Below are positions 35,975 to 61,100 of a stretch of 64,000 nucleotides of DNA, piece by piece (position 1 is the stretch's first letter; each line of letters starts with the position of its first letter). The notes beneath the pieces are model-generated. The model saw only the letters and a list, made by a program, of their open reading frames with translations. It made no database searches and had not been told where the DNA came from. The DNA lies in NCBI GenBank assembly GCA_963840145.1, contig CAWIXR010000001.1:42327-106326 (forward strand), read 5' to 3'. Source of the stretch: an uncultured Chloroflexia bacterium. Lineage in GTDB: Bacteria > Chloroflexota > Limnocylindria > QHBO01. A program made the translations under genes and the position numbers.

Positions 35975-36397
35975 TCAGGGCCGCTCCTGCACGTCGAGCA
36001 GCTCCCAGAGGACGCCGTTGAGCGAGCGCGGGTGGACGAAGGCGACCGTGCCATGGGCTCCGGGCCGCGGCTCGCGATCGATCAGCTCGGCCTCGGCGGC
36101 GGCCAGCGCCTCGAGCGAGGCCGGCAGGTCATCGGTCAGGAAGCAGACATGGTGGACGCCCTCGCCATGAGTGGCGAGGTAGCGGGCGACGCCGCCCTCG
36201 TCGTCGATCGGCTCGACCAGCTCGATCCGCGCCGACGGATCGGGGCCGGTCGGCAGGAAGACGAGGCGCACGCGCTGGGGAGCGAACGTCATCGGCGGCC
36301 CCTCTGGCTCGAGGCCGAATAGCTCCCGGTAGCGGGGCAGCGCCTCGTCGATCGAGCGGACGACGATCGCGACGTGATGGATCGGCCCGATGCTCAC
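35975..36397 (-). CDS. mce: methylmalonyl-CoA epimerase (VOC/glyoxalase fold)
   Basis: [28 protein letters not shown]…[12 protein letters not shown]… GTG start overlaps the mutase TGA stop. Confidence 0.75.
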
Positions 36398-37995
36398 GGG
36401 CGGTGCTCGCCCCACACGCCGCGCAGCGCGGTGGCGATCTCGCCGAGAGTGACGTCCGCCTCGACGGCGGTGCGGATGCGGGGCAGGACGTTCTCGGTGC
36501 CGGTCGCCGCGGAGGTCAGCGCGGCCAGGGCGGCGTCGGCGGCGGCCCGGTCGCGTCGCGCGCGGACGGCTCGCGTCCGCTCGACCTGCTGCTCCTCGAG
36601 CTCGGGGTCGATCGCCTGCGGGGCCGGGCGCTGCTCGTCACCCTCGTCGGCGAATGCGTTGACGCCGACGATGACCCGCTCCCCGGCCTCGATCGCCCGC
36701 TGTACCGCGTACGCCGCGTCGCCGATCGCATCGGGCTGGTAGCCGGCCTCCAGCGCGACGAGCGTGCCGCCGAGCTCGTCGATGTGCGCCAGCTCGGCGA
36801 CGGCGCCGGCGAAGATCGTCTCGGTCAGGGTCTCGACGTAGTACGAGCCCGCCAGCGGGTCGACGGTCGCTGCGACGCCGGCCTCGTGATACAGCACTTG
36901 TTGTGTTCGGAGGGCGAGGCGGGCAGTCGCCGGCGTGGGTAGGCCGAGCGCCTCGTCCAGGGCATTCGTGTGCAGCGACTGCGTCCCGCCGAGGACCGCG
37001 GCCAGCGCCTGGACGGTCGTGCGCACGACGTTGACGTCCGGCTGCTGCGCGGTGAGCGTCGAGCCGCCGGTCTGGACGTGGAATCGCATCGCCAGGCTCT
37101 TTGGATCCTTCGCCCCGAACCTGTCGCGGGCGACGGTCGCCCAGGTGCGCCGAGCGGCGCGAAACTTCGCGACCTCCTCGAGCAGGTCGCCGTGGGCGGC
37201 GAAGAAGAAGGAGAGGCGCGGCGCGAAGTCGTCGAAGGCCATCCCGGCGGCCAGCGCCGCATCGGCATAGGCGATCGCGTTGGCGACCGTGAAGGCAACC
37301 TCCTGGATCGCCGTGGATCCCGCCTCGCGCATGTGGTAGCCGCTGATGCTGATCGTGTTCCATGCCGGCAGCTCAGTGCGGCAGTAGGCGAAGGTGTCGG
37401 TCACCAGGCGCATCGAAGGGCCGGGCGGGAAGATGTAGGTGCCCCGCGCGATGTACTCCTTGAGGACGTCGTTCTGGATCGTCCCACGAAGCCGATGCGG
37501 GTCGACGCCGCGGCGGCGCGCCACCGTCTCGTACAGCATCAGCAGGATCGCGGCGGTGGCGTTGATCGTCATCGAGGTGGAGACCTCGCCCGGGTCGATC
37601 CCGTCGAGGAGCAGCTCCATGTCGTCGATCGAGTCGATCGGCACCCCGGTCCGCCCCACCTCGCCGACCGCCATCGGGTCGTCGGAGTCGTACCCCATCT
37701 GGGTCGGCAGGTCGAAGGCGACCGACAGGCCGGTCTGGCCGCTGGCGAGGAGGTAGCGGAAGCGGCGGTTCGTCTCCTCGGCCGAGCCGAAGCCGGCGTA
37801 CTGGCGCATCGTCCACGGCCGGCCCCGATAGCCGTCCGGCCGAATGCCGCGGGTATACGGGAACGCGCCGGGCTCTCCCAGCGCGGCCGCCGGATCGAAG
37901 TCGGTGAGGTCCGCCGGGCCATAGACCGGCTCGATCTCGATGCCGGACGCGGACCGATGCGGACGGCGCCGCTCCGGCGCGTCGGGCTCGCTCAT
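36394..37995 (-). CDS. methylmalonyl-CoA mutase large subunit, catalytic (TIM-barrel) domain only; no B12-binding domain
   Basis: …[61 protein letters not shown]… The 533-aa product ends before any B12-binding domain. Confidence 0.88.
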
Positions 37996-41546: not shown

Positions 41547-41575
41547 GCAAGCACTCCTTCGCGTGATCGGTGGTG

Positions 41576-41648
41576 TGGGCCCGGCAGGAATCGAACCTGC
41601 GACCGTCCGGTTATGAGCCGGTTGCTCTAACCATTGAGCTACGGGCCC
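41576..41648 (-). tRNA. tRNA-Met (anticodon CAT); elongator-like, although an Ile-lysidine tRNA cannot be excluded
   Basis: Reverse complement: GGGCCCGUAGCUCAAUGGUUAGAGCAACCGGCUCAUAACCGGACGGUCGCAGGUUCGAUUCCUGCCGGGCCCA. G1-C72 is paired, so it is not an initiator. The 3' CCA is not encoded in register. Confidence 0.85.
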
Positions 41649-41720
41649 GCGAGCAAGACGGTGGACAAGTCCGAGTATAGACGGATGTCTTTGCACAACG
41701 ACATCGACATTTCTCCACGT

Positions 41721-41729
41721 TGTGGATAA
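41721..41729 (-). promoter_or_regulatory. Perfect DnaA box (TTATCCACA on the minus strand), 80 bp upstream of parA
   Basis: Read directly on the plus strand as tgtggataa. Confidence 0.4.
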
Positions 41730-41807
41730 CCCGGATGCCCGTTTCGGGGTCGAGCGCCTATCATCGGTTTCGTTCCTCCCGCCCCTGTCGCACGGAAGGT
41801 GTTGCGT

Positions 41808-42574
41808 TGACCAAGGTCATATCGATCGCGAATCAGAAGGGCGGTGTGGGCAAGACCACCTGCTCCATCAACCTGGGCGGCGCATTGGCGGAACGCGGTT
41901 ACCGCGTCCTCTGCGTCGACATGGATCCGCAGGCAAATCTCACCGTCGGCCTGGGCGTTTCCCTCTCGGACGTGCGCGTGTCGATGGCCGACGTCCTCTC
42001 CGACGATCGCGTTGGTCTTGACGAGATCGTCCGCGAGACCGAGACGCAGGGTCTGTGGGTCGCACCCGCAACGCTCGAGCTCGCGTCGACCGAGGTCGAG
42101 CTGTTCACCGCCATCGGCCGCGAGATGGTGCTTCGCGACGCGCTGGACGGCTGGGCGGACCGCCAATTCGACGTCGTCATCATCGACTGCCCGCCGACGC
42201 TCGGTCTGCTGACCATCAACTCGCTGGTGGCGTCGAACCGCGTGATCATCCCGGTGCAGACGCAGTACTACGCGATCAAGGGCCTGACCGCGCTCATCAA
42301 GGTCATCAACACGATCAAGATCAAGCTGAACCACGACCTCGAGGTGCTCGGCCTGCTGCCGACCTTCTTCGACGGCCGCACGGTGCTCGCCCGCGAGATG
42401 CTCGCCAACCTCAAGCAGCTCGGCGATCACCGGGTCTTCAACACGATGATCAAGCAGACGGTGAAGCTCGGCGAGGCGCCGCTCACCGGCAAGCCGGTCA
42501 CCGAGTACGCGACGAACTCATCGGCCGCCCGCGCATTCCGTGACCTGGCACAGGAGGTGATCGAGCTTGGGTAG
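41808..42574 (+). CDS. parA: chromosome partitioning ATPase ParA/Soj
   Basis: Starts at the TTG after GGAAGGTG; KGGVGKTT deviant Walker A. Confidence 0.9.
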
Positions 42575-43565
42575 CAAGGGTCCCGCATTCCGGGAGAACA
42601 TCCACCGACTCTTCGACGAGGCCCAGGCGACCGACCTCGCCCCGGGCATCGTGTCGCTCATCGAGTCACGCGGCACACACGCGCAGATCCGCGAGGTGCC
42701 GGTCAGCAAGATCCTGCCGAACCCGGCGCAGCCGCGGCTCTCCTACGACGAGGAATCGCTGACCGAGCTGGCCGACTCGATCAGAGAGCACGGCGTTCTC
42801 CAGCCGATCCTCGTGCGGCCCAGCGGCTCGAAGTTCGAGCTCATCGCCGGGGAGCGGCGCTGGCGCGCGTCGACAATGGCCGAGCGCGAGACGATCCCCG
42901 CAATCGTCGCCGAGTTCGACGACCAGACCGCGCTCGAGGTCAGCATCATCGAGAACCTCCAGCGCGAGGACGTCTCGCCGCTCGAGGAGGCGGTGATGTT
43001 CCGCAAGATGACCGAGACATTCGGCTATTCGCTGCGCCAGCTGGCGCAGAAGGTCGGCAAGGACAAGGGGTACATCGAGAACCGGCTGCGCCTTACCGAT
43101 GCGCCTGCCGACGTCCGCGAGCTCGTGTCCGTGCGCAAGGACACGATCAGCCACGCCTACGAGCTGATGAAGATCGGCGACGAGCGAAAGCGTCGACGGC
43201 TCGAGAAGCGGATCATCGCCGGCGAACTGTCGCTGGCCAAGCTACGGCTGATCACCGGCACGACCGGCCATCCCGAGGAAGAGAACGGTCACGCCGAGCA
43301 CAAGCCGCGACGACGGGCGAAGACCGCGGCCGGGCGCGCGGCCGAGGTGCGGGCCGCGGACGATGCGCTGATGGGCGCTCGCTCGAAGCTCGCCGAGGGC
43401 ATCGATGACCTCGTCGACATCCTCCGCCAGCCGGAGCTCATGGAGCAGATTCCCGAGGTCAACCGGGCGAACTTCGCGAAGCACCTCACGATCACGAAGC
43501 TCAAGATCGAGAACGCGATCGCGATCATCCGCGCCGGGACGCCCGCATCAGCCGAGGGCGAGTGA
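42567..43565 (+). CDS. parB: chromosome partitioning protein ParB/Spo0J
   Basis: ParB N-terminal domain (…LQPILVRPSGSKFELIAGERRWRAS…) and HTH region. Start overlaps the parA stop. Confidence 0.9.
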   Translation: MGSKGPAFRENIHRLFDEAQATDLAPGIVSLIESRGTHAQIREVPVSKILPNPAQPRLSYDEESLTELADSIREHGVLQPILVRPSGSKFELIAGERRWRASTMAERETIPAIVAEFDDQTALEVSIIENLQREDVSPLEEAVMFRKMTETFGYSLRQLAQKVGKDKGYIENRLRLTDAPADVRELVSVRKDTISHAYELMKIGDERKRRRLEKRIIAGELSLAKLRLITGTTGHPEEENGHAEHKPRRRAKTAAGRAAEVRAADDALMGARSKLAEGIDDLVDILRQPELMEQIPEVNRANFAKHLTITKLKIENAIAIIRAGTPASAEGE

Positions 43566-46308: not shown

Positions 46309-46384
46309 TGGCTCCGGCGGTAGGACTCGAACCTACGACCAAGTGATTAACAGTCACCCGCTCTACCAACTGAGCTACGCCGGA
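46309..46384 (-). tRNA. tRNA-Asn (anticodon GTT)
   Basis: Reverse complement: UCCGGCGUAGCUCAGUUGGUAGAGCGGGUGACUGUUAAUCACUUGGUCGUAGGUUCGAGUCCUACCGCCGGAGCCA. CCA is encoded. Confidence 0.9.
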
Positions 46385-46753
46385 ACGCGCGCGAACCGAC
46401 GATCAGGCGTGACCGTGGGTCGGCCGGCCGATGATACCGTCGCCTCCGAGGACCGGTCAAAACGGAGAATGTCCCGTGGTGCCCTCGCGCACTCGCGTCT
46501 GAGTCCTATTGACGCGCGTCCTGTATCGGTTCAACAATTACTGGTCCATAAAGGCTAGGGACTTCCGACCCGAACGTCCCATGATTCCTCTGATCCGAGA
46601 CGGAGGAGAAGAGCCTAGCTGCCGGCTCGCGGCGGGTTCTCTCATCGATCTCAGTGCCACTGTCCGTGCCCATTCGCGGTGCCACACCGCCGGGGTGTCA
46701 ACCGGCAGGTTGGAGCGGCTGTCGCTCCGTGCAACGCGAAGGGGGGTGATGGG

Positions 46754-48274
46754 ATGTCCGTCAGGGTAGACGAAGCCCCACAAGAGGGCATCACCGACGA
46801 GGTCGCGACGCCGCTCTCCGGCGAGGCGCGGGGGCGCGCGTCTCCCAGATGGTTCGGGGCTGCGCGCAGCACCCGCACGAGGATCCTGGCCTCCTACGTC
46901 GTCCTTCTCGCTCTATCCGTCATCATCGGCCTGGTCGGTCTCCGCGAGGTCCTGCTGATCAGCCTCAACGACCGCGTCCAGGAGGACCTCGAGCAGGAGG
47001 TCACCGAGCTCGACCGGCTCGCGACCGAAGGCAACGACCCGCAGACCGGCCAGCCCTTCGACAGCCTGGAGCGCGTCTTCGAGGTCTTCCTCTTCCGCAA
47101 CCTGCCTGGCAACGGTGAGGCACTGCTGACGTTCGTCGAGGGCCAGCAAACCGATCGCAACGTCGAGCAGTTCCCGCTCGAGACCTTTCCTGCGGAGCGG
47201 CTGGCCGAGTGGGAAAGCCTGAGCGAGCCCAGCGGTGGCATCAGCCGCGTCGTCGTCGACAGCTACGGCACCGAGATCGGCGACGTCCACTACCACGCGG
47301 CGCGCGTCCGGCTCGGCGACGAGGTCGGCTCGTTCGTCGTCGCCATCCTCCCGGCCAGCGAGCTCGTCGTCATCGAGGAGCTTCAGACCTATGGTCTGCT
47401 GGCAGCGCTCGGCGTCCTCCTCATCAGCTCGATCGCGGCCTACTTCCTGGCTGGGCGGGTCCTGCGGCCGGTGCAGGAGCTGACCGATACCGCACGCTCG
47501 ATCTCCCAGTCCGACCTGACCCGGCGGATCAGCGCGAGCGGGGGTGACGAGGCCTCCGAGATGGCGCGAAGCTTCAACGCGATGCTCGACCGGCTCGAGG
47601 CCGTGATGCGCAGCCAGCGCGAGTTCGTCCACGACGCCAGCCATGAGCTGCGCGACCCGCTCACGATCATCGGCGGCCACCTCGAGCTCCTCAGCGAGGA
47701 GCCGGAGGAACGCGACGCGACGATCGCGCTGGTCGTCGATGAGCTCGACCGAATGGCCCGCATCGTCGACGACCTCCAGCTCCTGGCCGATGCCCAGCAG
47801 CCCGACTTCCTGCGCCCGACGTGGATCGACATGGAGCCGTTCACCAACGAGTTGATCGCCAAGGCCGCGGCGATGGCGCCCCGGACGTGGGAGCTGGACG
47901 GCGCAGCCGATGCCGAGGCGTTCGTCGACCGCCACCGCCTCACCGAGGCAGTCATGAACCTGGTCCACAACGCCGTGCAGCACACCGTCGGGCACGACAC
48001 GATCGCCATCGGCTCGTCGGTGGCCGGCGGCGAGATCCGGCTCTGGGTCCGCGACACCGGCTTCGGCATTGCCGAGTCCGACCAGGCCCGGGTCTTCGAT
48101 CGGTTCCGGCGCGGGCGCAGCGCCCACCGGCGCTACCGCGGCAGCGGCCTCGGCCTGGCGATCGTGCGGACGATCGCCGAGTCCCACAATGGCCACATCG
48201 AGCTGATCAGCAAGCTCGGCGAGGGGTCGACGTTCACGATGGTGCTGCCGGCCCGGGCGGGAGGCGCGAGGTGA
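46754..48274 (+). CDS. two-component sensor histidine kinase (TM sensor, HAMP, HisKA, HATPase_c)
   Basis: MSVRVDEAPQEG… preceded by GAAGGGGGGTGAT. H-box HELRDPLT; N/G-box region …RDTGFGIAESDQARVFDRF…GSGLGLAIV…. Confidence 0.88.
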   Translation: MSVRVDEAPQEGITDEVATPLSGEARGRASPRWFGAARSTRTRILASYVVLLALSVIIGLVGLREVLLISLNDRVQEDLEQEVTELDRLATEGNDPQTGQPFDSLERVFEVFLFRNLPGNGEALLTFVEGQQTDRNVEQFPLETFPAERLAEWESLSEPSGGISRVVVDSYGTEIGDVHYHAARVRLGDEVGSFVVAILPASELVVIEELQTYGLLAALGVLLISSIAAYFLAGRVLRPVQELTDTARSISQSDLTRRISASGGDEASEMARSFNAMLDRLEAVMRSQREFVHDASHELRDPLTIIGGHLELLSEEPEERDATIALVVDELDRMARIVDDLQLLADAQQPDFLRPTWIDMEPFTNELIAKAAAMAPRTWELDGAADAEAFVDRHRLTEAVMNLVHNAVQHTVGHDTIAIGSSVAGGEIRLWVRDTGFGIAESDQARVFDRFRRGRSAHRRYRGSGLGLAIVRTIAESHNGHIELISKLGEGSTFTMVLPARAGGAR

Positions 48275-48930
48275 CGCGCATCCTGATCGCCGAGGACGAC
48301 GGCCTGATCAGCTCGTTCATCGACAAGGGCCTGCGGGCCAGCGGCTTCTCGACGCTGATCGCCAGCGACGGCGAGGAGGCCGAGCAGTACGGGATGACCG
48401 ACGAGTTCGACCTCATCATCCTGGACATGGGCCTCCCCGAGCGCGACGGCCTCCAGGTCCTGAAGTCGCTGCGCGCGCGCGGTAAGCAGATGCCGATCCT
48501 CATCCTCACCGGGCGGCCCGAGCGCGACGTCGTGACCTGCCTCGACGCCGGCGCCGACGACTACATGCGCAAGCCCTTCCGTTTCGAGGAGCTGCTTGCC
48601 CGCGTCCGTACCAGGCTGCGCGACCGCGGCTCGCGAGAGTCGTCGGCCCTGACGGTCGGACAGGTGCACCTCGACCTTCGGACCCGCCGCGTGACGATCG
48701 ACGACCGCGTGGTCGACCTGACCGCCCGCGAGTTCAGCCTGCTCGAGACGCTCCTCCGGCATCCGGACCAGGTTCTGAGCCGGGAGCAGCTGCTATCCCA
48801 GGTGTGGGGCTACTTCTTCGACCCCACCTCGAACCTCGTCAACGTTTACGTCAACGCGCTGCGGCGGAAGCTCGGCGCCGACGTCATCGAGACGGTCCGC
48901 GGCGCGGGGTATCGGCTGCCGAAGCGCTGA
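48271..48930 (+). CDS. OmpR/PhoB-family response regulator
   Basis: VTRILIAEDDGLI…DLIILDMGLPERDG… receiver domain, then a winged-helix domain (…LTAREFSLLETLL…GYRL). GTG start overlaps the HK TGA. Confidence 0.92.
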   Translation: MTRILIAEDDGLISSFIDKGLRASGFSTLIASDGEEAEQYGMTDEFDLIILDMGLPERDGLQVLKSLRARGKQMPILILTGRPERDVVTCLDAGADDYMRKPFRFEELLARVRTRLRDRGSRESSALTVGQVHLDLRTRRVTIDDRVVDLTAREFSLLETLLRHPDQVLSREQLLSQVWGYFFDPTSNLVNVYVNALRRKLGADVIETVRGAGYRLPKR

Positions 48931-49118
48931 TCGGTCCGATCGCGGACGGTGCGCGGACGCACCGTGCCGGAGTTCAATTGTAAGGACGTTCTCACGAAAC
49001 CCTTACCGCTGACTGATGGCGCCCTTACCGAATCCTGATCGCTGACCACGAATGTCAGCGTGTGCTGAAATCATCCTCACCCCGACCCGTCCAGCTGCCG
49101 GACGTCACGCGCATCGGC

Positions 49119-52100
49119 GTGATCGTCCGGGAGCTCCTCCGCCGTGCAGGAACGTCCCCTACCGCGGCACTGGAGGTCGGGGCTGATTCGAGCTGCCTGC
49201 TTTCCGATTGCGGGCGCCCGCTGACTTCGGCTGACGACAGCTACTGCAGCCGAGCCTGTCTGCGGCGCGCGGGTCGCATCGCGCAGGCCGCCGAGCTGGC
49301 GGGACAGAGCTGCGCCAGGGACGGCTGCGAGAACCTCTTCGACGCCCGCACGAGCGGTCACCGCTTCTGCAGCAGCGCGTGTGGGATCGAGGCCCGCCGG
49401 ACCGATCGGGCACCATGGACCCACGGCCTGACGGCCGCCCCCACTCGCCTTCCCGCCAACATCCCAGCCCCCGGCCTCGTCGCCGGGGGCGTTGCACGTC
49501 TCGGCCGCGGCGCGACGCAGGTCGGTGCCGCGATCGCCGCGGGGACGGCCGCCATTGCGCGGCCCATCCGATCGGGCGTCTCGCGCGCCGGCACCGTCCT
49601 CGTTGCGGCCACGCGTCCGGTCCGGGCCGGGGTCAGTCGCGCACTGGGCCCGATTGCCCGGCGCCTCGAGCCGGTGGTGAGCCCGGTGCGCCGGTGGCTC
49701 GGAGCCCTGTACGCCAGGACGGCGCCGGCCAGGGCCGTCATCGGCCGACCACTCAGCCTTGCATGGCGCCGCACACCGCGGCGCGTTCGTGTGCCTGGCG
49801 CCCTTCTCGTCGCGACCGCATCGGTCATGGTGCTCGTGCTCTCCTTCGCGGCCGCGTCGGACTTCACCGTCAACGACACGAGCGACCGCGTCGACGCGGT
49901 CGTCGGCAATGGCGTCTGCGACGTCAACACCAGCACGTCCGGCAGCCAGTGCACCCTGCGCGCCGCCATCCAGGAGGCGAATGCGCACCCCGGCCACGAC
50001 AAGATCACGATCGAGCCGGGCCTCTACCAGCTCGCGATCCCGCCGATCAACGAGAACGCCGCGAACGTCGGCGACTTCGAGCTCCTCGACACGGTGACCA
50101 TCGAGAAGCAATGGTTCACCCTCGGCGACGTCATCATCGACGGCGGCAATCCCCTGCCGAGCGCGCCGGTCATCGCCCGCGGCATCGACCGCCTCTTCGA
50201 GGTCCACCCCGGCGCCGGTGACGTCACCATGCGCGACGTCACCCTCCAGAACGGCTTCAGCCCCGAAGAGGGCGGCGCGATCCAGAACTGGTCGCTCGGC
50301 AAGCTGACCCTCGACGGCGTGACAGTCCGCGACAACTTCGCCGAGAAGGCCGGCGGCGGCCTCAACCATGGCGACCTCAACGACTACGAGTGGGCCACCG
50401 ATCCGCCGAACCTCGACCTGCTGCCCCACGGGCGCGTCGAGGTCATCGACTCGTTCTTCACCGGCAACGGCTCGGCCGGCGGCAGCGGTGCCGCCATCAA
50501 CAACGTGTCGGGCGGCACGATCACGATCACCGGCAGCACGTTCACCCTGAACCCCGGCGCGATCATGCCGGACCCGCTCGACCCTGAGGAGTTCCTCCTC
50601 GTCGACCCGGCCGACTACCCGCTCGACGCCAGCACGATCGCCAACCAGGCCCGCTGGGAGAAGGTCGGCACGCTGCGGATCAGCAACTCGACGATCTCGC
50701 TGAACGCGGCCGAGGGCAACGGCGCCGGCATCCTCAACGAGGGCGACAGCATCGTCGAGCTCGCGAACGTCGTCCTGACCCAGAACCGCACCGGCGCCAG
50801 CGGCGGCGGCCTCTACACCGAGGGCGGCAAGGTCACGATCACCGGCGGCACGGTCTCAAAGAACCAGGCGGCGAACGGCGGCGGCCTCTACGGCGGCGGC
50901 CATGTCTCGCAGTTCGGCCTCCGCGGGACGTTCACGTTGTCGGGCGTCCAGGTCGCCGACAATATCGCCGAGAACGGCGGCGGCCTGTACAACGACGGCG
51001 ACGCCCACATGGTCGTGACCAACACGACCTTCGCGCGCAACCACTCGTCCGACCACGGCGGCGCGCTCGTCAGCGATGGCCGCGCCAGCCTTCTGCTCAG
51101 CCACGTCACGGTCACGGCCAACACCTCGAACGGCGAGGGCGGCGGCATCTGGCTGCACAGCGAGCGGATGCAGACGATCGCCGACTCGACGGTCACGCTC
51201 AACAGGGCGGGCGTCCCGGTCGTCGAGGAGGACGGCACGCTGAGCGACGACATCGCCGGCGGTGGCGGCATCCACACCGATGGCGGCCCGACGACGATCC
51301 TGCGCACCCTCATCGACAGCAACGAGGCGAATGATGAGGGCGGCGGACTCAGCCTCAACAACGCGGGCGACCTCCTGATCGCGGACAGCACGATCTCGAA
51401 CAACCGGGCATTCGACGGCGGCGGCATGGAGAACAGCGCTCGGGAGGTGACCTTCGAGCGGCTCACGGTCACCGGCAACCGTGCGGCCTCGGCCGGCGGC
51501 GGCATCCACAACACCTCGAGCGGCGAGTTCTTCATCCTCGACACGACGGTCCGCGGCAACACCGCCCAGATCGGCGGCGGGCTTGCCAACGCGCCGGACA
51601 ACAGGATCACGATCCGCGGCTCGCTCTTCCTCAATAACACGGCGCGCCTGGGGACGCCCGGCGAGGACGGCGAGCTGCCCGAGGAGGCCGGCTACGGCGG
51701 CGGCATCATGAGCTACGCCGACGGCGACTCGCTCATCGAGAACACCACGATCTCCGGCAACAAGGCCGCGGTGGCCGGCGGCGGCCTGTTCCACGACGCC
51801 GACGGCGAGCTGCGCATCGTGCACACCACGGTCTGGCGCAACTCGGCGCCGGCCGGCGGCGGCATCGGCGTCAAGGAATCCGACTTCGTGCCCGACATCC
51901 CGCCGAAGACGAACGAGGCCGTCGTCCTGAAGAACTCGATCGTCGGCGGCAGCATCCGCGGCGGCAACTGCGACTGGTACATCCGGTCGGAGGGCGGCAA
52001 CCTCGAGAGTGGCGGCGTCAACACCTGCTTCCTGGCCGTCACCCACGAGACGGCGCAGAGCCCGATTGAGCTCGGCGTCCGCGACCGCCGCGGCGACCCG

Positions 52101-55100
52101 AAGCTGCTGGCCATCGCCGACAACGGCGGGCCGACCCTGACCCACGCGCTCCTGTACGGCAGCCTCGCCATCGACTCGAGCCCCGAGCCGTGCTCGGTCG
52201 ACGACCAGCGCGGCGTCGAGCGCCCCGCGCCGAACGACACGGTCCATGACGAGATGAACCGATGCGACGCCGGCGCCTACGAGTTCGTCGGTCCGCCGCC
52301 GCCGTACGACAACGTCGCCCCCGAGACGATCTTCAACTACCCCGAGGACGGTCCTGTCCAGGATTCCCTCGAGACGATGGCGTTCACCTTCCGCGGCGAG
52401 GATCCCGCGGTCGACGCGAACAACGTCCCGGTCAACTTCACCTCGCCCGATGAGCTGAACTTCGAGTGCCGCTTCCTCGAGATCGAGCTGACCGAGGAGC
52501 CCGAGCCCGTTCCGCCGTGGGAGCCGACGCCGCCCGAGGAGATGTGGAACGGCTGCTCGAGCCCGTGGTCCGTGCCGCTGACCGAGGAAGGTCTCTTCCG
52601 CCTGGAGATCCGGGCGATCGACCGCGCCGACAACATGGACGAGACGCCGGTCAGCGTGATCATCAGCGACGTCGGCCTGGAGCCGCCCGACACCCAGATC
52701 GTCGAGGCGCCCGGCCTGACCCCCGGCACCGTCGTGCCGCCCGCTCCGGCGGAGACGCCGCAGACCAACAGCCGCGCCGCACTGTTCAGCTTCCGCGCGG
52801 TGAGCGACTTCACCCCGTCGCAGTTCGCCGAGTACGAGTGCCGCCTCGACAGCCGCGACCCGGAGCAGTGGCTCGAATGCTTCAACCCCGTGATGTACTC
52901 CGACCTGACCACGGGCCTGCACACCTTCGAGGTGCGCGCCATCGGCACCGAGCTCGGCGGCCCCGATCCGACGCCGGCCCGGTACACCTGGCGCGTCGGC
53001 CCGGATCCGGCCGGCGGAGTGCCGTTCAGCTGCGATGAGGCGAACATCACCCTGACGCCCAACGCCGACGGCTGGGCGGACCAGGTCAACCCGCTCGAGA
53101 ACTACAAGTTCGAGACGGAGCTCGACGTCCGGTCCGAGGCCAATGTGCCCGAGTCCGGCCCGACCGAGCACCGGAACGCGCGGGCCTTCATCCGCTTCGC
53201 GCTCCAGGCTGACACCGACTGCGAGCTGCAGTCGGCCACGCTGCGCATGTTCTCCGAGGGCCACACCGAGGGACGAACCCTCGTCGCGGTTCCGCTCGCC
53301 GGGCCGTTCAAGGAGAGCACGCTCACCTGGGTCAGCGCGCCGCTCGAGGTCCCGGGCGCCGTCCCGGCGCCGGTCCCCGCGGGCGAGGGCTATCGCGACT
53401 TCGACGTCACCGACCACGTGAGGGACATCCTCGCCGGCACACTGGTGAACCATGGCTGGCTCATCCGCGACGCGGTGGAGTCCGATCCCGAGGGCGGCGA
53501 CCAGACCTTCGCGTCACGCGAGCTGCCACAGGATCCGCCGGAGATCACCCTGCCTGAGCTCGAGCTGCGCTTCGCGCCGGTCGCAAGCCCGCCGCCGGCC
53601 GAGCGTGACCAGACGCTCGTCGACAAGTACGTCGAGTGCGGTGAGGTCATCACCGAGAGCGTTCGGCTCCTGGGCGACGTGACCGGCTGCCTCACCGAGG
53701 GCATCGCCATCGGCGCCCCGAACATCATCCTCGACCTGAACGGCAAGATCGTCTCGAGCGGCTTCATCCTTGAGCCGGGCGAGGAGGACAACCTCACGCC
53801 GGGCATCCGCAGCGGATACCCGAACGTCGAGATCCGCAACGGCACCGTCACGAACTTCGGCTACGGCATCCTGCTCGGTCCTGGGTCGGTGCACAGCGAA
53901 GTCCACCACATGACCCTGACCCGCAACGCCCTGACCGGCCTGCAGCTGTTCGACGCCGATAACGGGCGCCTCGGCAACACGGTCCGCGACAGCACGTTCG
54001 ACTCGAACGGCGAGACGGGCCTGCAGCTGATGAGCGGCACCGAGGGCAGCCTCATCGAGAACAACTTCTTCATCAGCAACGGGATGTCGATCCACCTCTT
54101 CGACTCCCACCGCAACACGATCCGCAACAACACGATCAGCGGGATCATCCTCGACCCGACCCTCGACTCCGACGCCGGAATCGTGGTCGAGAACGGCTCG
54201 CGCGATAACGTCCTGATCGACAACGACGTCAGCGAAACCGGTGACGCCGGCATTGTCATCCACCAGGGCTCGCACGGGAACACCGTCGTCGGCGGCATCC
54301 TCGTCCGGAACGGCGACGCCGGCGTGATCGTCCAGGATTCGGACCGCATCACGGTCGACGGCGTCCTCGCCCACCAGCAGTCGGACGGCGGCGTCGTGCT
54401 GTCGAACTCGAGCAACAGCGTCGTCAAGAACAGCGACCTGGGCTACAACCCCTCCGGCGTCGACGCATCGGGCGTGAACAACCTGCTCGTCTACAACAAC
54501 GACGTGTCGCACTCGCTCCAGGCCGGCATCGAGCTCGGCGAGGGTGTGAACATGGTCGTCACCTGCAACACGGCCAACCTGAGCGGCGGCAGCGGCATCT
54601 CGATCGAGGGCGCCACGTTCGACTCGCTGGGCGTCGCCGTCGGCGGCGCCCTGGTCACGGGCAACACGGCCAACGAGAACGCCGAGTCCGGCCTCTCGAT
54701 CGCCGTCGGCCGCCACCGGGTCGGTGGTCCGGTCATCTGCCCGGGTGGCGAGGTCATCGGCAACAACGCGAACAACAACGCCGGCTACGGCATCGACGCC
54801 GGCGAGGACCCCGTTCCGGGCGAGCCGCTCGACCCGAACCGCAACATCGACGGCGGCGGGAACCGCGCGAGCGGCAACCACGCCGACGTCGGCGTGGCCG
54901 TCGGCCTGCCGGACGCCATCCAGTGCGTGGGCGTGGTCTGCGCCGCCGGCGACGACGTGCCGATGACGCCTGAGGACCTCACCGCGCCCGAGACGATCCT
55001 TCTCGCCGGCCCGGTCGGCTCGATCCTTCCGCTGCCCGCGGGCGTTTCCACGAACAGCGAGCGCGCCGTCTTCGAGTTCACCGGCAACGACGGCCCGCAG

Positions 55101-58100
55101 GGCGACGCCCCCACCGCGCTCATCTTCGAGTGCCGCGTGGACGCGCCGCCGGATCCGGTGATCATCGAGGAGCCTGAGCTCGAGCCGCCCGATCCGGGCG
55201 AGCCGCCGGAGCTGCCCGAGCCGCCCGAGGGCGAGTTCTGGGTCGCGTGCTCCAGCCCGCTCACCTACCTGGCCCTCGAGTCCTCGATGACGCACACCTT
55301 CGAGGTGCGAGCCGTCGACCAGGCCGGGAACTTCGACCTGACCCCGATCACGTACACGTGGACGATCGAGGCTGGCGTCGAGGAGGACGGCAGCGAGGAG
55401 TGCCTGCTCGGCGAGCCGATCAGCGACACGTGCTCCGTCCTCGGGCAGGCGCCCGACACGCGGATCAGCGCCGCCCCGGGCGAGCTGATCACCGATGAGG
55501 CCGGCACCCGCTACGACACCACGAACCGCTCGGCCACGTTCCGGTTCACCGGCAGCGACAACGTCACCGCCGGGTACAACCTGGCCTACGAGTGCCGCAC
55601 CTGGTACAGCGAGCTCAACGACGCGCTCACGCCGGCGGACATCCCCTCCGACGTCGACTTCGTCCCGTGCGAGTCGCCGAAGCAGTACATCGAGCTTCCA
55701 TACGGCGGCCACATCTTCGAAGTGCGCGCGACCGATCGCGGCGGCAACACCGACGCGGAGCCTGCCTGGCACGCCTGGTGGGTCCATCCCCCGCCGCCCG
55801 ACACGACGCCTCCGGACACGGAGATCCAGTCGGGTCCCGATCCGATCACCGTGCGGACGAACGCCACGTTCACCTTCACGGGAAGCGACAACCAGACGCC
55901 GACCGGCGACCTGCTCTTCGAGTGCCGCCTCGACGGCGCGATGGATCCGCTCGCCCCGGCCGTGCCGCTATGGACCCTGTGCACCTCCGGTCACGTCGTC
56001 AACGGCCTCACCCCGGGCGATCACGTCCTGCAGGTCCGCGCCAAGGACCAGAGCGGCAACGTGGACGACGTCAACGGGCTGGTCGACGCCACCGTGACCC
56101 CTGGGGAGATGGATCCCAGCGACGGCGTGCCCGCCGCCTACACCTGGACGGTCGGCCCGACGCCGATCGCAAGGACGGTCTTCTGCGGCCAGAAGATCAC
56201 GATCAGCATCGTGCTCAACAACAACCTGGGCGATTGCATCGGCCATGGCCTGATCATCGGTGCCAACAACATCACGATCGACCTGAACGGCAAGACGATC
56301 GACGGCAAGTCGATCGGTGCGGCCATCCTGAACAACGGCTACGACTCGGTCACGATCCGCAACGGCCGACTCACCGACTTCGACTACGGCGTCATGCTCA
56401 ACAACGGCGCCCAGAACAACATCGTCGAGGGAATCACCGTCGACCTCGCCCAGGAAGCCGGCATCAGCCTCGGCCACGGCACCTTCCCGGAGGATCCGAC
56501 ACTGGCACCCAGTGAGCCCGTGCCCGGATACCAGTCCGGCGTCGACAACACGATCCTGCGTGGCAACACCATCGTCTCGAACAAGCGCGGCGTGTGGCTG
56601 GTGAACGGTGCCCGCGACAACGTCGTGCGCGGCAACCTCATCGGCGCCACGAGTGGCCCGGCCGTGTTCATCGAGCGCGCCACGGCCACCCTCGTCGAGA
56701 GCAACGACATCCAGGTCTCCAGCGACGCCGGCGTCCTGCTTGAGGGCGCGACCAACAACGTCATCCGCAACAACACGATCGCCGAGGCCGGCACCGGCGT
56801 CGAGATCAGCGACACGACGTCCGGGCCGACGGTCGGCATCGAGTCGAGCGACAACGTCGTCCAGGGCAACCACATCAGCGAGACGAGCGGTGCCGCCGTG
56901 GATATCGTCCACTCGCGCCGCAACCAGATCCTCGACAACGTCGGCACGCTGACGAACTCCGACGCGATCGAGCTGTTCTACGGGTTCGACAACGTGATCA
57001 AGGGCAACGACGTCCGTGGCAACAAGGGCGGCATCAGCCTGAAGAACTCGACCGGCAACACGATCGAGGCCAACAACACCAGCAACTCGGATGGGACGGG
57101 AATCTCGCTCGAGTCGCAGTCGTTCGCCAACGTGATCGTCAACAACATCTCGAACAACAACGTCGGCGGCGGCATCTACATCGGTGACGAGACGCCGGCC
57201 GGCCAGGGAACCCTCGTCCAAGGCAACACCACGAACGGGAACAAGGAAGCCGGCATCAAGGCAACGAAGCCGGCCCACATCTTCAAGGACAACGTCTCGT
57301 TCGACAACGACAGCTGGGGCATCTACGTCGGCGACCCGTCGAACGGGCGCGCCAACATCGACGGCGGCGGCAACCGCGCGCAGGGCAACCTCGGCCCACT
57401 CGGCATCGACCTGAAGCCGCAGCAGTGCTACAACATCACCTGCCTCGGCGGCGAGGGCGGCGGCGACGGGATCCCGCCGAACACGAACATCCTCGAGGGA
57501 CCGATCCAGCCTGTCAGCAGCGAGAGCCTCGCCACCTTCCGCTTCAGCGGCGCCGACAACGCCAGCCCGGTTACCTTCGAGTGCCGCTTTGACAGCGCCC
57601 TCGAGACCGCCTGGGAGGCCTGCGCCAGCCCGAAGACCTACACGAACCTCGTCAACGACACGTACACCTTCGAGGTGCGCGCCGTCGACTTCTCCGGCAA
57701 CACCGATGAGACGCCCGCCAGCTACACGTTCGCCGTGGAGCTTGGCGACTTCGAGGCCTTCATCGACGCGAGCCCGGACAGGGCGACCGTCGAGACGAGC
57801 GCGACCTTCGAGTTCTCGTCCAACCGCCAGAGCGGTGTCACCTTCCAGTGCCTGCTCGTCGACCCGCTGACCGTCCTCACGACGGCGACGTGGGCTGCAG
57901 CGCCTGTCTGCACCTCACCGATCAGCTACACCGATCTCGCGGTCGGCGGCCACGAGTTCTGGCTGCGCGCGACCGGTCCGTCGGACGCCTACAGCACGAA
58001 GATGTACGCCTGGACCATCGGTCCTGCGCCCGTCCCGGCCGAGGTCTCGTGCGGCCAGGTCCTCATGCAGAGCACGCGCGTGCTCAACGACCTCGTCGAC

Positions 58101-61100
58101 TGCGGCGGCTACGCCCTGATCGTCGGCGCGCCCGGCATCACGATCGACCTCGACGGGCACGTCCTCGACGGCCTCGGGCTCGACGCCGGCGTCCTGAACA
58201 ACGGGCATGACGACGTCACGATCAAGAACGGGCTCATCACCCAGTTCCTGTACGGCGTCCAGCTCAACGCGGGCACCGCGCGCAACGTCGTGCACTCGCT
58301 GCGGCTCGAGGCGAACGAGGAGGCGGCGATCGCCCTCTCCGACGCCGACCAGGGCGCCGACGGCAACCTGATCCGCGACAACTCGATCGTCGGCAACGAG
58401 GTCGGCATCGCCCTCTACACCGGGACGCGGCACGCCGTGATCCGCAACAACGACCTGGGCGCCAACCAGGGCGAGGGCGGCATCTATCTCGAGTTCGCCA
58501 GCGACAACCTCATCGAGCACAACGAGATCTCGATGAGCGGCGGCGGCGGCATCTTCATGATCGGCGGCGGCAACAACGTCGTCACCGACAACGTGCTCAA
58601 GGAGAACGGCGGCTACGGGATCGTGGCCGGCGAGGAGCTGCTGCCCTCCAACAACAACCTCATCCAGCGCAACGAGGTCGAGGGCGGCCAGGGCGGCGTC
58701 CTCGTCGGCGGCAACAACAACACCGTCATCAACAACTCGATCACCGGCGTGACGGGCCCCGGCGTCGCCGTCGAGCTCGCCAACAACACCCTGGTCAAGG
58801 GCAACGACTTCATGGGCAGCGCCGGCGGCGTCTCGGTCGGCGAGGCGAACGGCACGACGATCGTCGCCAACAACGCCAGCGGCACGCTGGGCGCGGGCAT
58901 CGAGATCGGCGAGCTGTCGCTCGACACGATCGTCCGCGACAACACGGCCAGCGGTAACGGCGGCGCCGGCATCGAGATCACCGAGTCCTCCGTCCTCGAT
59001 CGCGGCTCGCTCGTCGAGAACAACACGGCCGACGCCAACGGCGGCGACGGCATCTACGTCGAGGGCGCCGGTCACCGCGTCGTGAACAACGAGGCCAAGC
59101 TGAACGGCGGATGGGGCATCTACTCCGTCGGCGCCGTCGATGGCGGAGGCAACCTCGCCGCGGGCAACATGGAGCCCGAGCAGTGCTTCGGCATCGTCTG
59201 CGAGCTCGGCACGGTCCCCGGCGCTCCGGAGACCTGGATCATCGCCAAGCCGGCCGACTGGAACGCGGGCGTCGAGGGCGTCCAGAGCCCGAGCCGCAAC
59301 GTCAGCTTCACGTACATGGCCTCGGACGACTTCTCGCCGATCACCGACATCGTCTTCGAGTGCCGTCTCGACAACGACAACCCGCTCGCGTGGGAGGACT
59401 GCGAGTACCCCGCCGAGTACCTGAACCTCGGTCCGGGCACCCACAAGTTCGAGGTCCGCGCGATCGACATGCTGGGCCAGGGCCTGGCCGATCCCACGCC
59501 GGCCGTGTTCGAGTGGGCGTACGAGCCGCTGCCGAGCGGCGTCGCGCCCGAGGTGACGATCGACGTCACCCCGGTCGACACCGACCCGCTGAAGCCCGGC
59601 GTGCAGACGTGGATGGTCGACTCGATCTTCACCTTCTCCGCGAACGAGCCCGACGTCACCTTCCAGTGCAAGGTCGACGCGAACGGCTACGAGCCGTGCG
59701 GGTTCGAGGCGGCGCAGTTCATGAACCAGGGCGCCTTCGAGTGGGGCCTGAACGAGACCGAGGTCGGGAACCACACCTTCTTCGTCCGCGCCATCGACTT
59801 CGAGGGCAACGTCAGCGCGCCTGAGACCTTCGTCTGGGAGCTGCTCGGCGTCAACGTCGTCTTCACGAGCGGCCCGGGCTTCACCCCGGCCACCGGCGGC
59901 CCGGCGGGCGACCCCGCCACCGGCGGCATGACCTCCAGCACCTCGGCGATGATCGAGTTCGAGGCCAACGTCGGCGACGCGACCTTCTGGTGCCGGTTCG
60001 ACAGCATCGATCCGGGCGGGTACTTCCCGTGCGAGTCGCCGTTCCTGGCCGGGCCGGCCTTCGCCGCCCAGACGGAGTTCCCGGAGCCGCTGCTGGCCGG
60101 CGACCACACCCTCGAGGTGTACGGCGAGTCCGAGCTCTACGGCTCGGCGGCCGAGCTCGAGCCCGCGATCTACGAGTGGGAGGTCGTCGACCCGGTTGAC
60201 GGCAGCCCGCCCAACACGACGATCGAGCGCGCCCCGGCGGGCCAGGTCACCAACCCGGACAACACGCTGAGCTCCACGACGTTCGAGTTCGTCGGTCTCG
60301 ACGACCTCACGCCGGACTTCCTGCTCCTGTTCGAGTGCCAGGTCACCAACGGCACCGAGCTGCCCAACGAGCTCGAGTGGATCGAGTGCACGAGCCCGTT
60401 CAACCTGCTCGACGTCTACTCGTACGCCGATCCGCAGATGGCAATCGGCGTGGAGCACACCTTCTGGGTGCGCGCCGTCGATACCTTCGAGCCGGAGTTC
60501 CCGGATCCGACGCAGCCCGAGTTCGAGGGCAACCCCGATCCGACCCCGGACTTCCACACCTGGACGCCGATCGCCGACACGCGCGGCCCGATCACCACGA
60601 TCTCCGCCGGACCGGCGAATGGCGCCACCGTCGGTGAGGAGGTCGAGCCGTACATGTTCTTCGGCCTCGACGACGCGACCCCGCTGCACCTGCTCACGTT
60701 CGAGTGCCAGGCCTACGTCACGGCGGCCGGCCCCGACCCGCAGGGCTGGGAGACGTGCGAGACCACGGTCGACAGCGGCTGGGAGCTCAGCGTGCCTGAG
60801 CCGGGCGCCTACACCGTCGCGATCCGCGCCACCGACATGGCCAACAACGTGGGCATCGCCGCCACGCGACTCGTGACCGTCGCGGCCGCCCCCGTCGTGA
60901 CCTTCATCACCGGCCCGGCCGGCCGGCTCGATCCGGTCTCCGGCGAGCCCGACGGCGCCAGCCAGACCGAGAACGCGGTCTTCACCTTCACCTCAGACCA
61001 GCCCGGCTCGACGTTCGAGTGCTCCTTCGAGGGCGACTTCCTGCCCTGCGGCGGCCTCAGCGACCCGGCGACGGGCGCGGCATGGGTCGTCGAGACCGGC

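Follow-up and report, generated by a model that had tools for sequence, protein, structure and literature searches.

A conserved two-component system and a phased promoter-like element beside a giant surface-protein gene: a predicted dedicated switch

Introduction

In pho boxes, the two repeats nearest the promoter take the place of the -35 region, with their end about 10 bp before the -10 hexamer. The mtrAB genes are arranged in the order mtrA-mtrB-lpqB, with the regulator first. Boxes of actinomycete OmpR-family regulators have been described as gTnAc-n6-GaAAc for GlnR (a-b-a-b) and as GTnAC-n6-GTnAC (PMC10704036). The SaeRS system of group B Streptococcus, with PbsP/BvaP, is devoted in essence to one or two surface or secreted proteins (PMC11389388), and a preprint presents pneumococcal RR06 with CbpA as an adhesin-dedicated two-component system (bioRxiv 10.64898/2026.07.15.738638). 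The giant genes of Omnitrophota encode very large secreted or surface proteins and have conserved neighbours, and the paper on them describes no dedicated two-component system (bioRxiv 10.1101/2023.11.21.568195).

Here we analysed a two-component gene pair lying next to a giant surface-protein gene within one stretch of 64,000 nucleotides (the window), for which an initial annotation had proposed a dedicated regulatory unit.

Results

Three genes follow one another on the same strand:

46754-48274, + strand: sensor histidine kinase (HK), 506 aa (translation, Pfam)
48271-48930, + strand: OmpR/PhoB-family response regulator (RR), 219 aa (Pfam Response_reg and Trans_reg_C)
49062-64000, + strand: gene for a giant secreted/surface protein (more than 4,979 codons; continues beyond the window)

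The first two genes are complete and intact, and their initial description as a kinase and an OmpR-type regulator overlapping by GTGA (48271-48274), where the RR start meets the HK stop, on the strand of the giant gene, agrees in every part with the sequence. HK contains HAMP (residues 231-283), HisKA (288-349, with His297) and HATPase_c (392-501) domains in Pfam, and its two transmembrane helices, at about residues 44-66 and 211-233, enclose an extracytoplasmic alpha/beta sensor domain of ~145 aa. Database protein P0121 is 100% identical to HK over the 289 N-terminal residues that served as the query, and its length of 506 aa fits a start at ATG 46754. An in-frame GTG at 46679 is an alternative HK start. 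The AlphaFold model of the entire kinase had a pLDDT of 80; the sensor domain modelled alone reached a pLDDT of 90 and a pTM of 0.84, and its best fold matches were the WalK extracellular domain and Cache/PAS-like sensors, at TM scores of only 0.43-0.53. In RR the receiver residues are D9/D10, D52, T80 and K101, the Trans_reg_C domain is of the winged-helix type, and the closest solved structures are M. tuberculosis PrrA (1ys6, E 1.7e-47) and MtrA (2gwr). Against NCBIfam, the best match of RR was MtrA (192.6 bits), and HK matched the heavy-metal sensor subfamily TIGR01386 best and MtrB second (162.6 bits), scores far lower than the MtrA/MtrB equivalog cut-offs of 300 and 450 bits. Neither protein reached a PhoR or PhoB cut-off.

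The giant protein begins with a cytoplasmic extension that carries two CxxxxC...(F/Y)CSxxC zinc-ribbon motifs, and it has one hydrophobic segment (49797-49859). Its domains are a CSLREA-type N-domain with a PMP-repeat beta-helix, CBM96, three NosD/beta-helix blocks and many Ig-like repeats.

The arrangement of these genes was compared with that in relatives, and the synteny suggested by the initial annotation was indeed found. When loci were retrieved by their kinase, a same-strand homologue of the giant gene followed the HK-RR pair in 13 of the 14 evaluable loci. These results include 12 loci with kinases 49-88% identical to HK (L001, at 88%, being the closest relative), among which all 11 having downstream DNA showed this order, and two further HK look-ups (L133 and L134) with the same arrangement. 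Look-ups starting from the giant gene also revealed an orthologous HK-RR pair at L126, L127, L129 and L131. The pair followed by a giant-gene homologue is thus present at 17 loci besides the window, a set that is not phylogenetically independent and that includes several error-prone long-read MAGs with frameshifts. Carriers of the module include Acidimicrobiia, Gaiellaceae, Humibacillus and Ornithinibacter, and its upstream context is unrelated between lineages. The window itself appears to belong to Chloroflexota. In Humibacillus xanthopallidus SLM-627, the one carrier in this set with a record that names a strain and not a MAG, the module lies at 1,320,606-1,342,054 of NZ_CP084995.1. Identity to RR is 99% in L001 and 60-74% across the remaining module loci.

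Whether the system and the giant gene can be separated has a two-sided answer. The system was found without the giant gene only in the most divergent pair (L135) and in paralogous pairs, but the giant gene does occur without this system at seven loci: L049, L125 (75% identical) and L128 have no adjacent two-component system, and L045, L046, L050 and L132 have a NarL-type system instead. The adjacency of this particular system is therefore not needed for the giant gene.

On the upstream side, two features precede HK:

46309-46384, - strand: tRNA-Asn (GTT) (ARAGORN; Rfam tRNA, 73 bits)
46385-46753, + strand: spacer 5' of HK, 64% G+C, with a candidate sigma-70-like promoter

Both had been noted before, the spacer as AT-richer DNA, and both were recovered. 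The same tRNA-Asn lies upstream of the module in L001 and in none of L002-L012, and it marks the left boundary of the module in the lineage of the window only. A generic sigma-70 scan gave the candidate TTGACG-18-AACAAT at 46509-46538. An nhmmer scan of the window with the gap element described below found no copy in this spacer, and thus there is no sign of the autoregulation that many such systems show. The suggestion that 46.3-64 kb is an accessory segment survives only in part: its G+C and GC3 equal those of the rest of the window, giving no sign of an island, and the tRNA-Asn junction is syntenic in L001, but elsewhere the module does occupy unrelated contexts, in two phyla.

No stop interrupts the giant frame between 49017 and the window end, and near its beginning only GTG 49062 and GTG 49119 are available as in-frame starts; consequently the gap after RR measures 131 or 188 bp, as in the earlier estimate of ~130-190 bp. 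The gap is also AT-richer as claimed (58-60% G+C, against 70% for the whole window). GTG 49062 is the probable start, with GTG 49119 as the alternative; L001 shares the GTG-CTn codons, and its frame runs uninterrupted from that GTG into the Cys motifs that are conserved. The following features were identified in the gap:

48946-48965, + strand: GC-rich hairpin, ACGGTGCG-cgga-CGCACCGT, 3' of the RR stop, without a T run
48980-49040, + strand: predicted RR binding array; six sites of 5-6 bp, their T-n-A cores at an exact 11-bp spacing
Sites of the array: GTAAGG 48980, TCTCAC 48990, CTTACC 49002, CTGATG 49013, CTTACC 49024, CTGATC 49035
49050-49055, + strand: -10-like hexamer GAATGT, A at position 2 and T at position 6, from comparison with relatives

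The array is a candidate for the OmpR-type direct-repeat sites that the initial annotation had proposed to search for in the gap. Its T residues are at 48981, 48992, 49003, 49014, 49025 and 49036. Relatives have four sites (A-B-C-D), and in the window and L001 the C-D unit is duplicated. Aligned with L001, the element stands out at ~94% identity against ~45% in the surrounding sequence. With a profile built from 10 other loci, 48980-49021 was the best match in the 64-kb window, significant but modest (E 0.004, 13.8 bits; next match E 2), and the held-out L011 gave E 2e-8. When 1.32 Mb were scanned with the profile, every match at E<0.01 either directly followed an RR stop or directly preceded the giant gene. 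Among 22 instances the T.A cores are invariant and the period is exactly 11 bp (information-content autocorrelation 0.68 at lag 11), with the four-site consensus aTAAa / yTCAy / yTnAy / cTgAt. The element is also present in L004, the sequence of which is too short to show the downstream gene. No conserved RNA structure was predicted for the element and it had no Rfam match.

The promoter-like hexamers reported earlier fared less simply: the generic sigma-70 scan found no site in the gap, but comparison with relatives revealed GAATGT. It starts 14 nt after the T of the last array site, L001 has GATCGT at the identical offset, and the other relatives have cAnnCT hexamers in the same geometry; A53 and T57 of the element alignment are invariant. 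GTG 49062 lies six nucleotides after this hexamer, so the mRNA would be leaderless. Sites over a -35 region and spacer could equally mediate repression, and the element could be bound by a different OmpR-family protein that prefers similar sites.

The hairpin at 48946-48965 was considered as a terminator and is not convincing: it is without a T run, the 55 nt surrounding it have a folding z-score of -1.5 (0 for the L001 equivalent), and the terminator scan found nothing there.

Discussion

The three-gene unit and its conserved row of sites recur in many soil bacteria, and therefore they most likely constitute a dedicated on/off switch for the giant protein. We consider it probable that an uncharacterised OmpR/PhoB-type two-component system controls, and activates, the adjacent giant gene through the phased array. 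This reading comes from genome comparison, and the dedicated unit of the initial annotation is upheld by linkage across distant lineages, by the co-divergence of HK and the giant protein, and by an operator- or promoter-like element in the gap, with the qualification that the giant gene also exists without this system. In the proposed mechanism, the membrane kinase would sense an extracytoplasmic cue, perhaps through its single PAS/Cache-like domain, autophosphorylate at His297 and pass the phosphate to Asp52 of RR. Phosphorylated RR would then bind head-to-tail on the T-n-A sites of 48980-49040, one helical turn (11 bp) apart, so placed that the two promoter-proximal sites would cover the -35 region and end about 9 nt before the -10-like hexamer. 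RR may thereby recruit RNA polymerase in the manner of a pho box and turn on transcription of the giant gene, probably starting at or next to GTG 49062. Such a switch would be an ordinary kind of gene control.

It is unlikely, given where the element is found, that the genes are linked and the element is nonetheless an alternative-sigma core promoter or the box of another regulator (a GlnR-like global one, for example), or that the giant gene is expressed mainly by read-through from the HK promoter as part of one operon. Read-through is conceivable because the element and the RR stop codon overlap at four loci, where no spacer is left that could hold a terminator, and the window itself has no convincing one. 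Moreover, T-n-A cores at 11 bp are common to several actinomycete OmpR-family regulators, so the specificity of the element for this RR is only predicted, and L125 has a weak copy (E 0.36) though it has no adjacent two-component system. However, the element lies 3' of the RR gene at every orthologous locus, and before the giant gene it is absent where a NarL-type system replaces the pair: L045, L046 and L050 gave no match there at E<=1, and the sole match in L132 (E 0.012) is upstream of its OmpR-type RR. In L006 and L012 a related site also follows a paralogous RR, before that regulator's own downstream gene, a pattern more in keeping with a family-specific than with a global operator. GGAAC-like ECF-type -35 motifs are not conserved among the element instances.

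With the same module and array, RR might instead repress the giant gene by occluding the -35 region and spacer until the signal arrives, which we regard as quite improbable. The -35 region and the greater part of the spacer do lie under sites C and D; in many loci TTGAC occurs within site C, so that a basal promoter could exist, and expressing a gene of some 15 kb or more is expensive, so it might be off by default. But this TTGAC stands 20 nt away from the -10-like hexamer, too long a spacing for a good sigma-70 promoter, and the window has CTTACC at the corresponding sites. PhoB-type activation classically uses phased direct repeats that end ~10 bp from the -10 and stand in for a weak -35.

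The initial annotation also raised coupled sensing, in which the zinc-ribbon N-terminus of the giant protein would signal to or with HK or RR as part of the sensor; as a property of the module this is very improbable. The extension is real coding sequence, as judged by its GC3 frame signal and by all eight Cys being conserved in L001 despite diverged surrounding residues. However, among the homologues checked it is present in the window and L001 only (tblastn finds L001 alone); the others start with a short basic region and an ordinary signal peptide, and L006 has a different, longer N-terminus. Its motif family is rare, with 17 matches among 1.84 billion representatives, and is otherwise found as tandem arrays in proteins of 111-631 aa. 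An extension so restricted cannot explain the conserved linkage.

Finally, it is scarcely credible that these are coincidental neighbours, with the two-component system controlling unrelated genes and its position meaningless. Two-component genes are common in these genomes, and some giant-gene homologues have no adjacent system. However, 13 of 14 HK-first loci keep the linkage despite unrelated flanks, two MAGs carry two complete modules apiece, the module being duplicated as a unit, the identities of HK and of the giant protein rise and fall together (rho 0.76, p 0.002, n 13), and 10 of 13 giant-first loci have some two-component gene immediately upstream.

Among known systems, MtrAB/PrrAB of Mycobacterium are the closest relatives of the pair in sequence and structure. 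Unlike MtrAB, however, the pair scores far under the equivalog cut-offs, has HK before RR and is followed by no lpqB-like gene. SaeRS and RR06 belong to Firmicutes, with experimentally defined regulons and adhesins of ordinary size, whereas here a predicted target of more than 4,979 aa is carried by uncultured soil Chloroflexota and Actinomycetota. The Omnitrophota giants differ in adjoining secretion-system loci and in having SecA-like domains, many transmembrane segments and more than 30,000 aa.

The layout of the gap matches operators of the pho-box and GlnR-box type, in which the -35 region is bound by the regulator. GlnR/AfsQ1-type boxes likewise consist of four consecutive 5-bp sites with a T-n-A core, separated by 6-bp spacers (PMC10704036). 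In contrast to the a-b-a-b boxes of GlnR, an orphan regulator of nitrogen genes, the four sites of the element are all of the 'a' type, and the element is tied to one two-component system and one target. With PhoR-PhoB of E. coli and the PhoP PHO boxes of Streptomyces, the module shares an OmpR/PhoB-family regulator, a HisKA kinase and 11-bp direct repeats; it differs in the large extracytoplasmic sensor domain of HK, in scores below the PhoR/PhoB cut-offs of NCBIfam, and in a predicted target that is the single adjacent giant gene rather than a phosphate regulon.

The two-component pair

The pair had been described in the initial annotation as a sensor kinase and an OmpR-type regulator overlapping by GTGA. 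The coordinates and features of both genes hold on translation and by their Pfam domains, and the overlap was confirmed in the sequence.

46309-46384, minus strand: tRNA-Asn
46754-48274, plus strand: sensor histidine kinase (HK), 506 aa, with HAMP, HisKA and HATPase_c domains (Pfam)
48271-48930, plus strand: response regulator (RR), 219 aa, with Response_reg and Trans_reg_C domains (Pfam)

By its Pfam domains, His297, structure model and fold matches, HK is a class I (HisKA) transmembrane kinase. Two transmembrane helices flank an extracytoplasmic domain of ~145 residues, followed by HAMP, the H-box (His297) and the ATPase domain. AlphaFold modelling was confident, with a pLDDT of 80 for the whole kinase and 90 for the sensor domain alone, and the cytoplasmic part matches the HK853, WalK and CusS cores in fold. 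The sensor domain, modelled with the topology H-H-E-E-H-E-E-E-H, has no Pfam match and gave weak fold matches to the WalK extracellular domain and to Cache and KinD sensors (TM 0.43-0.53, none at E<=0.001).

RR combines the receiver pocket and the Trans_reg_C domain of the OmpR/PhoB family. Its receiver (Response_reg, E 7e-26) retains D9, D10, D52, T80 and K101 on translation, and the C-terminal winged helix spans residues 146-216 (Trans_reg_C, E 4e-26). The family binds tandem direct repeats about a helical turn apart; the candidate here is a conserved array of exact 11-bp period adjoining the RR gene, to which RR is predicted to bind. The closest regulators are PrrA and MtrA of M. tuberculosis. 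All NCBIfam equivalog scores, however, fall under the curated cut-offs: for MtrAB (NF040689 / NF040691) RR scores 192.6 against 300 and HK 162.6 against 450; for the heavy-metal systems CopRS/CusRS/CzcRS (TIGR01386/TIGR01387) HK scores 175.8 against 292.6 and RR 188.3 against 279.2; and for PhoR/PhoB, on whole-protein scores, HK reaches 156.8 against 334.2 and RR 178.7 against 296.2. The named families were therefore rejected, and we treat HK and RR as an unnamed OmpR-type pair.

Linkage of the pair to the giant gene

A search starting from HK, in which one genome per species was scanned, returned 12 loci with kinases 49-88% identical, in carriers labelled Acidimicrobiia, Gaiellaceae, Humibacillus, Ornithinibacter and others. 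A same-strand homologue of the giant surface-protein gene follows HK-RR in all of the 11 loci that have downstream DNA, and these homologues are 33-86% identical in the N-domain and collinear across thousands of residues. Additional HK look-ups added two loci with the same order (L133 and L134) and the most divergent pair, L135 (44% identical in the sensor region, 57% in RR), where an acetyltransferase stands downstream instead of the giant gene. The boundary of orthology (49% against 48% HK identity) is provisional. HK and giant-protein identities co-vary (rho 0.76) among loci that are related to each other and come in part from long-read metagenome-assembled genomes (MAGs) prone to frameshifts.

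The converse search, starting from the giant gene, gave 13 loci that were inspected for upstream two-component genes. An orthologous, co-oriented HK-RR pair was found in L126, L127, L129 and L131; a divergent OmpR-type pair in L130 and an OmpR-type RR in L053; NarL-type or other two-component genes in L045, L046, L050 and L132; and no two-component genes within about 6 kb of the giant gene in L049, L125 and L128. Taken together, the two surveys indicate that this HK clade essentially always accompanies the giant gene, and that the giant gene also lives with another system or none nearby. Occurrence of one without the other, which the initial annotation had counted against the unit, gave a divided result: the pair stands alone only in L135 and as paralogous pairs, and the giant gene occurs without this pair at several loci.

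Several of these loci have features of their own. In L045 (461-2871), L050 (662-4095) and L132 (640-4926), NarL/GerE-type regulators with HisKA or HisKA_3 kinases precede giant homologues that are 45-48% identical in the N-domain and have no 11-bp element before the giant gene; this is a non-orthologous replacement of the adjacent system. A paralogous, divergent HK-RR pair adjoins the module in L006 (6004-9391), L012 (305-3723) and L134 (2824-5518), on the minus strand in each, and is present too in L007 and L011. An APH-family phosphotransferase gene follows it in the loci checked, L006, L012 and L134 (279 aa in L006 and L012). Two MAGs have two complete HK-RR-giant modules each (L001 and L008 in CAWGIY01; L005 and L006 in CAWALC01), with components only 53-58% identical to the window for HK, which suggests modules duplicated or independently acquired and mutually insulated within one genome. 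Between RR and the giant gene, L002 (11969-12610) and L126 (4766-5467) have a truncated kinase gene. Its product, about 233 aa, consists only of DHp and ATPase domains, lacks any membrane or sensor portion and shares 57-62% identity with the C-terminus of HK. Element copies lie after RR and before the giant gene in L002, and before the truncated kinase, after it and before the giant gene in L126. This protein might serve for feedback, as a soluble kinase induced by RR.

A phased array in the gap between RR and the giant gene

The gap after RR had been noted as AT-richer, and this was borne out (58-60% G+C against 70% in the window). Between the window and its closest relative, L001, the 3' end of RR is identical and identity then falls to about 45%, from which a block of ~62 bp (48978-49039) stands out at ~94%. 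A matching series of motifs follows the RR stop in the other loci, and in L002, L004, L009 and L010 the stop codon itself falls inside the first site. The 22 aligned instances share invariant T.A cores at profile columns 5-7, 16-18, 27-29 and 38-40, at an exact 11-bp period (information-content autocorrelation 0.68 at lag 11), and a cAnnCT hexamer with invariant A and T starts 14 nt after the last core T. In the window the core T positions are 48981, 48992, 49003, 49014, 49025 and 49036; there are six sites because the C-D unit of the A-B-C-D row seen in relatives is duplicated. The -10-like hexamer GAATGT (49050-49055) lies exactly at the expected offset from the last site. For the OmpR-type direct repeats sought in the gap, this conserved array is the candidate, and RR is predicted to bind it.

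Ten loci, with the window, L001 and L011 left out, served to build a profile HMM. Its best match on both strands of the 64-kb window was 48980-49021 (E 0.004, the next being E 2), a modest score, and the held-out L011 was found at E 2e-8. Across the 1.32 Mb of loci scanned, all matches at E<0.01 lie just past the RR stop or just ahead of the giant gene. The same scan gave no match at E<=1 in the NarL-type loci L045, L046 and L050, and the sole match in L132 is upstream of its OmpR-type regulator.

Variants of the array were also seen. In L007 a tandem duplication of ~110 bp in the gap (12115-12330) doubles the first half of the element (GATAAAGAAGTCTTCATCACC), unlike the window and L001, where the duplicated stretch is a 22-bp unit with two sites; the number of copies in the operator region seems to change easily. 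Past the stop of the paralogous RR there is a related, element-like site in both L006 and L012, the L012 match (E 0.98) being weaker than that in L006 (E 0.006). L125, whose giant gene is 75% identical to that of the window, lacks two-component genes over the 6 kb upstream of that gene and still has a weak match to the element (E 0.36) in TAAGGAGATTCTCATC...CACGCT (5892-5953); this suggests a regulator located elsewhere that acts in trans.

Other signals in the gap and upstream of HK

The promoter-like hexamers proposed for the gap fared unevenly: a generic sigma-70 scan of the gap found none, and the -10-like GAATGT surfaced only through comparison with relatives. A terminator scan found no intrinsic terminator between RR and the giant gene. 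The hairpin at 48946-48965 was rejected as one, having no T run, an unexceptional z of -1.5 and no conservation in L001. A structured RNA or riboswitch in the gap was likewise rejected (Rfam matched only tRNA, and RNAalifold gave 0 pairs on 14 instances), as was the reading of site A as an ECF-type GGAAC -35, which is not conserved across instances. A perfect inverted repeat, CGCTGAC-N7-GTCAGCG (49040-49060), overlaps the -10-like hexamer and is not conserved in L001. Upstream of HK, no profile match pointed to an autoregulatory copy of the element, and an ATAAAGG there, shared with L001, carries no information, since conservation between the two extends over the entire spacer.

Start and N-terminus of the giant protein

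On the plus strand an open frame extends from 49017 up to the window's end, which truncates the gene; early in-frame start codons are limited to GTG 49062 and GTG 49119. The first lies six nt past the -10-like hexamer. L001 conserves its GTG-CTn, and the L001 frame, read from this GTG, reaches the Cys motifs. Since no Shine-Dalgarno-like run precedes either GTG, a putative leaderless start at GTG 49062 is preferred.

The protein carries a domain with the motif CTLRAAIQEAN, PMP-type and NosD/beta-helix repeats, a CBM96 domain and many Ig-like repeats (Pfam matches Chlam_PMP, NosD, Beta_helix and CBM96), and NCBI names its close homologues CSLREA, choice-of-anchor Q and right-handed parallel beta-helix proteins. 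An NCBIfam scan of the N-terminal 460 aa in the window gave no family. The first ~245 residues (region 49062-49860) make up a cytoplasmic extension in front of a single hydrophobic segment (49797-49859); the extension contains two zinc-ribbon motifs of the form CxxxxC...(F/Y)CSxxC. All eight cysteines are conserved in L001. The motif family is rare, with 17 hits in 1.84 billion representatives, and most of these are proteins of 111-631 aa in which the motif is repeated in tandem, up to nine times. A Pfam assignment was rejected as noise-level (zf-CGNR, E 2.4), and no small zinc-ribbon genes were found between the pair and the giant gene in other loci. The giant homologue of L006 has a different, longer N-terminus.

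Composition, host and possible transfer

The stretch beginning at the tRNA gene had been proposed as an accessory segment. Its G+C is 0.685 against 0.707, its GC3 (0.92-0.94) is like that elsewhere, and no integrase-like gene was seen between tRNA-Asn and HK; a genomic island at the tRNA gene was rejected, the compositional test being negative. L001, the sole close relative in the presence/absence comparison, has the same tRNA-Asn/TCS/giant junction (TCS, the HK-RR pair) and shares with the window parA, parB, small enzyme genes and the tRNA-Asn (77-95% protein identity). The proposal therefore stands only in part: composition is ordinary and the junction in L001 is the same, but flanks elsewhere are unrelated from lineage to lineage and the carriers' labels fall in two phyla. 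In the skew and codon-usage comparison, GC3 was ordinary and the GC skew of the giant gene negative. From 50000 to 64000 the GC skew is persistently negative (-0.04 to -0.11) and the AT skew mostly positive, unlike the rest of the window, which probably reflects the Thr/Asp/Pro/Asn-rich repeat composition of the giant gene rather than replication or foreign origin.

A housekeeping gene, methylmalonyl-CoA mutase (36394-37995, minus strand), whose top named matches, at 81-85%, belong to Chloroflexota / Candidatus Limnocylindria, points to a host of that lineage. The MAG of L001 is labelled Chloroflexia and the other carriers Actinomycetota, and the giant protein shares 61-72% identity, across 3,000 residues, with the copy in a Gaiellaceae MAG. 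Transfer of the module between phyla is therefore plausible, to the extent that MAG labels can be relied on. At 41720-43565, 3-5 kb upstream of the module, lie parA (AAA_31/CbiA) and parB (ParB_N, HTH_ParB), with a tRNA-Met at 41575-41648 nearby, and this region may be near a replication origin.

Interpretation

Conserved linkage, co-variation and the conserved gap element make the initial proposal of a dedicated regulatory unit for the giant gene the best-supported reading. The module is probably a dedicated switch, in which HK would pick up an extracytoplasmic cue, phosphorylated RR would bind the phased array in the gap, and bound RR would activate the giant gene's own promoter.

It is unlikely that the element serves another regulator or sigma factor, or that read-through from an HK promoter dominates. 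A broader proposal is quite improbable in our view: that HK, RR, operator and giant gene form a self-contained 'sense-and-deploy' cassette, horizontally mobile between soil Chloroflexota and Actinomycetota and stackable as insulated copies, in which the HK sensor would monitor the giant protein or its substrate in a feedback loop and the double zinc ribbon of the window's lineage would be a second, direct line into the cell. Repression of the giant gene by RR, which would equally place RR on the array, is distinctly unlikely. The coupled sensing once proposed for the zinc-ribbon and transmembrane N-terminus is not supported for the module: the extension is conserved in L001, but at the N-terminus of the other homologues checked, apart from that of L006, a signal peptide follows a short basic stretch instead, and the extension cannot account for the conserved linkage, so that its coupling to sensing by the pair is very unlikely. 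That the pair and the giant gene are neighbours by coincidence is hardly credible.

Few products of bacterial genes are as poorly understood as giant surface proteins, which are expensive to make, and we know of almost nothing on the timing of their expression, especially in uncultured soil phyla. An apparently dedicated, conserved two-component system with a predicted operator offers a concrete handle on giant-gene expression, with an RR site testable in vitro. In Humibacillus the giant gene would be turned on for functional study by a mutant kept kinase-on, and the HK sensor domain points toward the cue that triggers deployment. The loci also display regulatory rewiring around one target: the neighbouring system is of the OmpR type, of the NarL type or absent, a genome may have two modules, and the module occurs in two phyla.

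Comparison with known systems

Our literature search found nothing on the module or the giant-protein family. By curated thresholds the module lies outside MtrAB, PhoRB and CopRS; the two-component clade is undescribed, as are the predicted operator and the giant target, the regulatory logic is conventional, and the principles of two-component signalling are left unchanged. In the pho-box layout a pair of repeats stands in for the -35 region, some 10 bp away from the -10. For GlnR-type boxes of actinomycete OmpR-family regulators, rows of four T-n-A sites have been documented, each site five bp long and set off from the next by a 6-bp spacer (PMC10704036). The module, known here from its sequence, would work much as promoters controlled by pho boxes or GlnR boxes do, and much as systems specialised for an adhesin do, SaeRS-PbsP of group B Streptococcus (PMC11389388) being an example.
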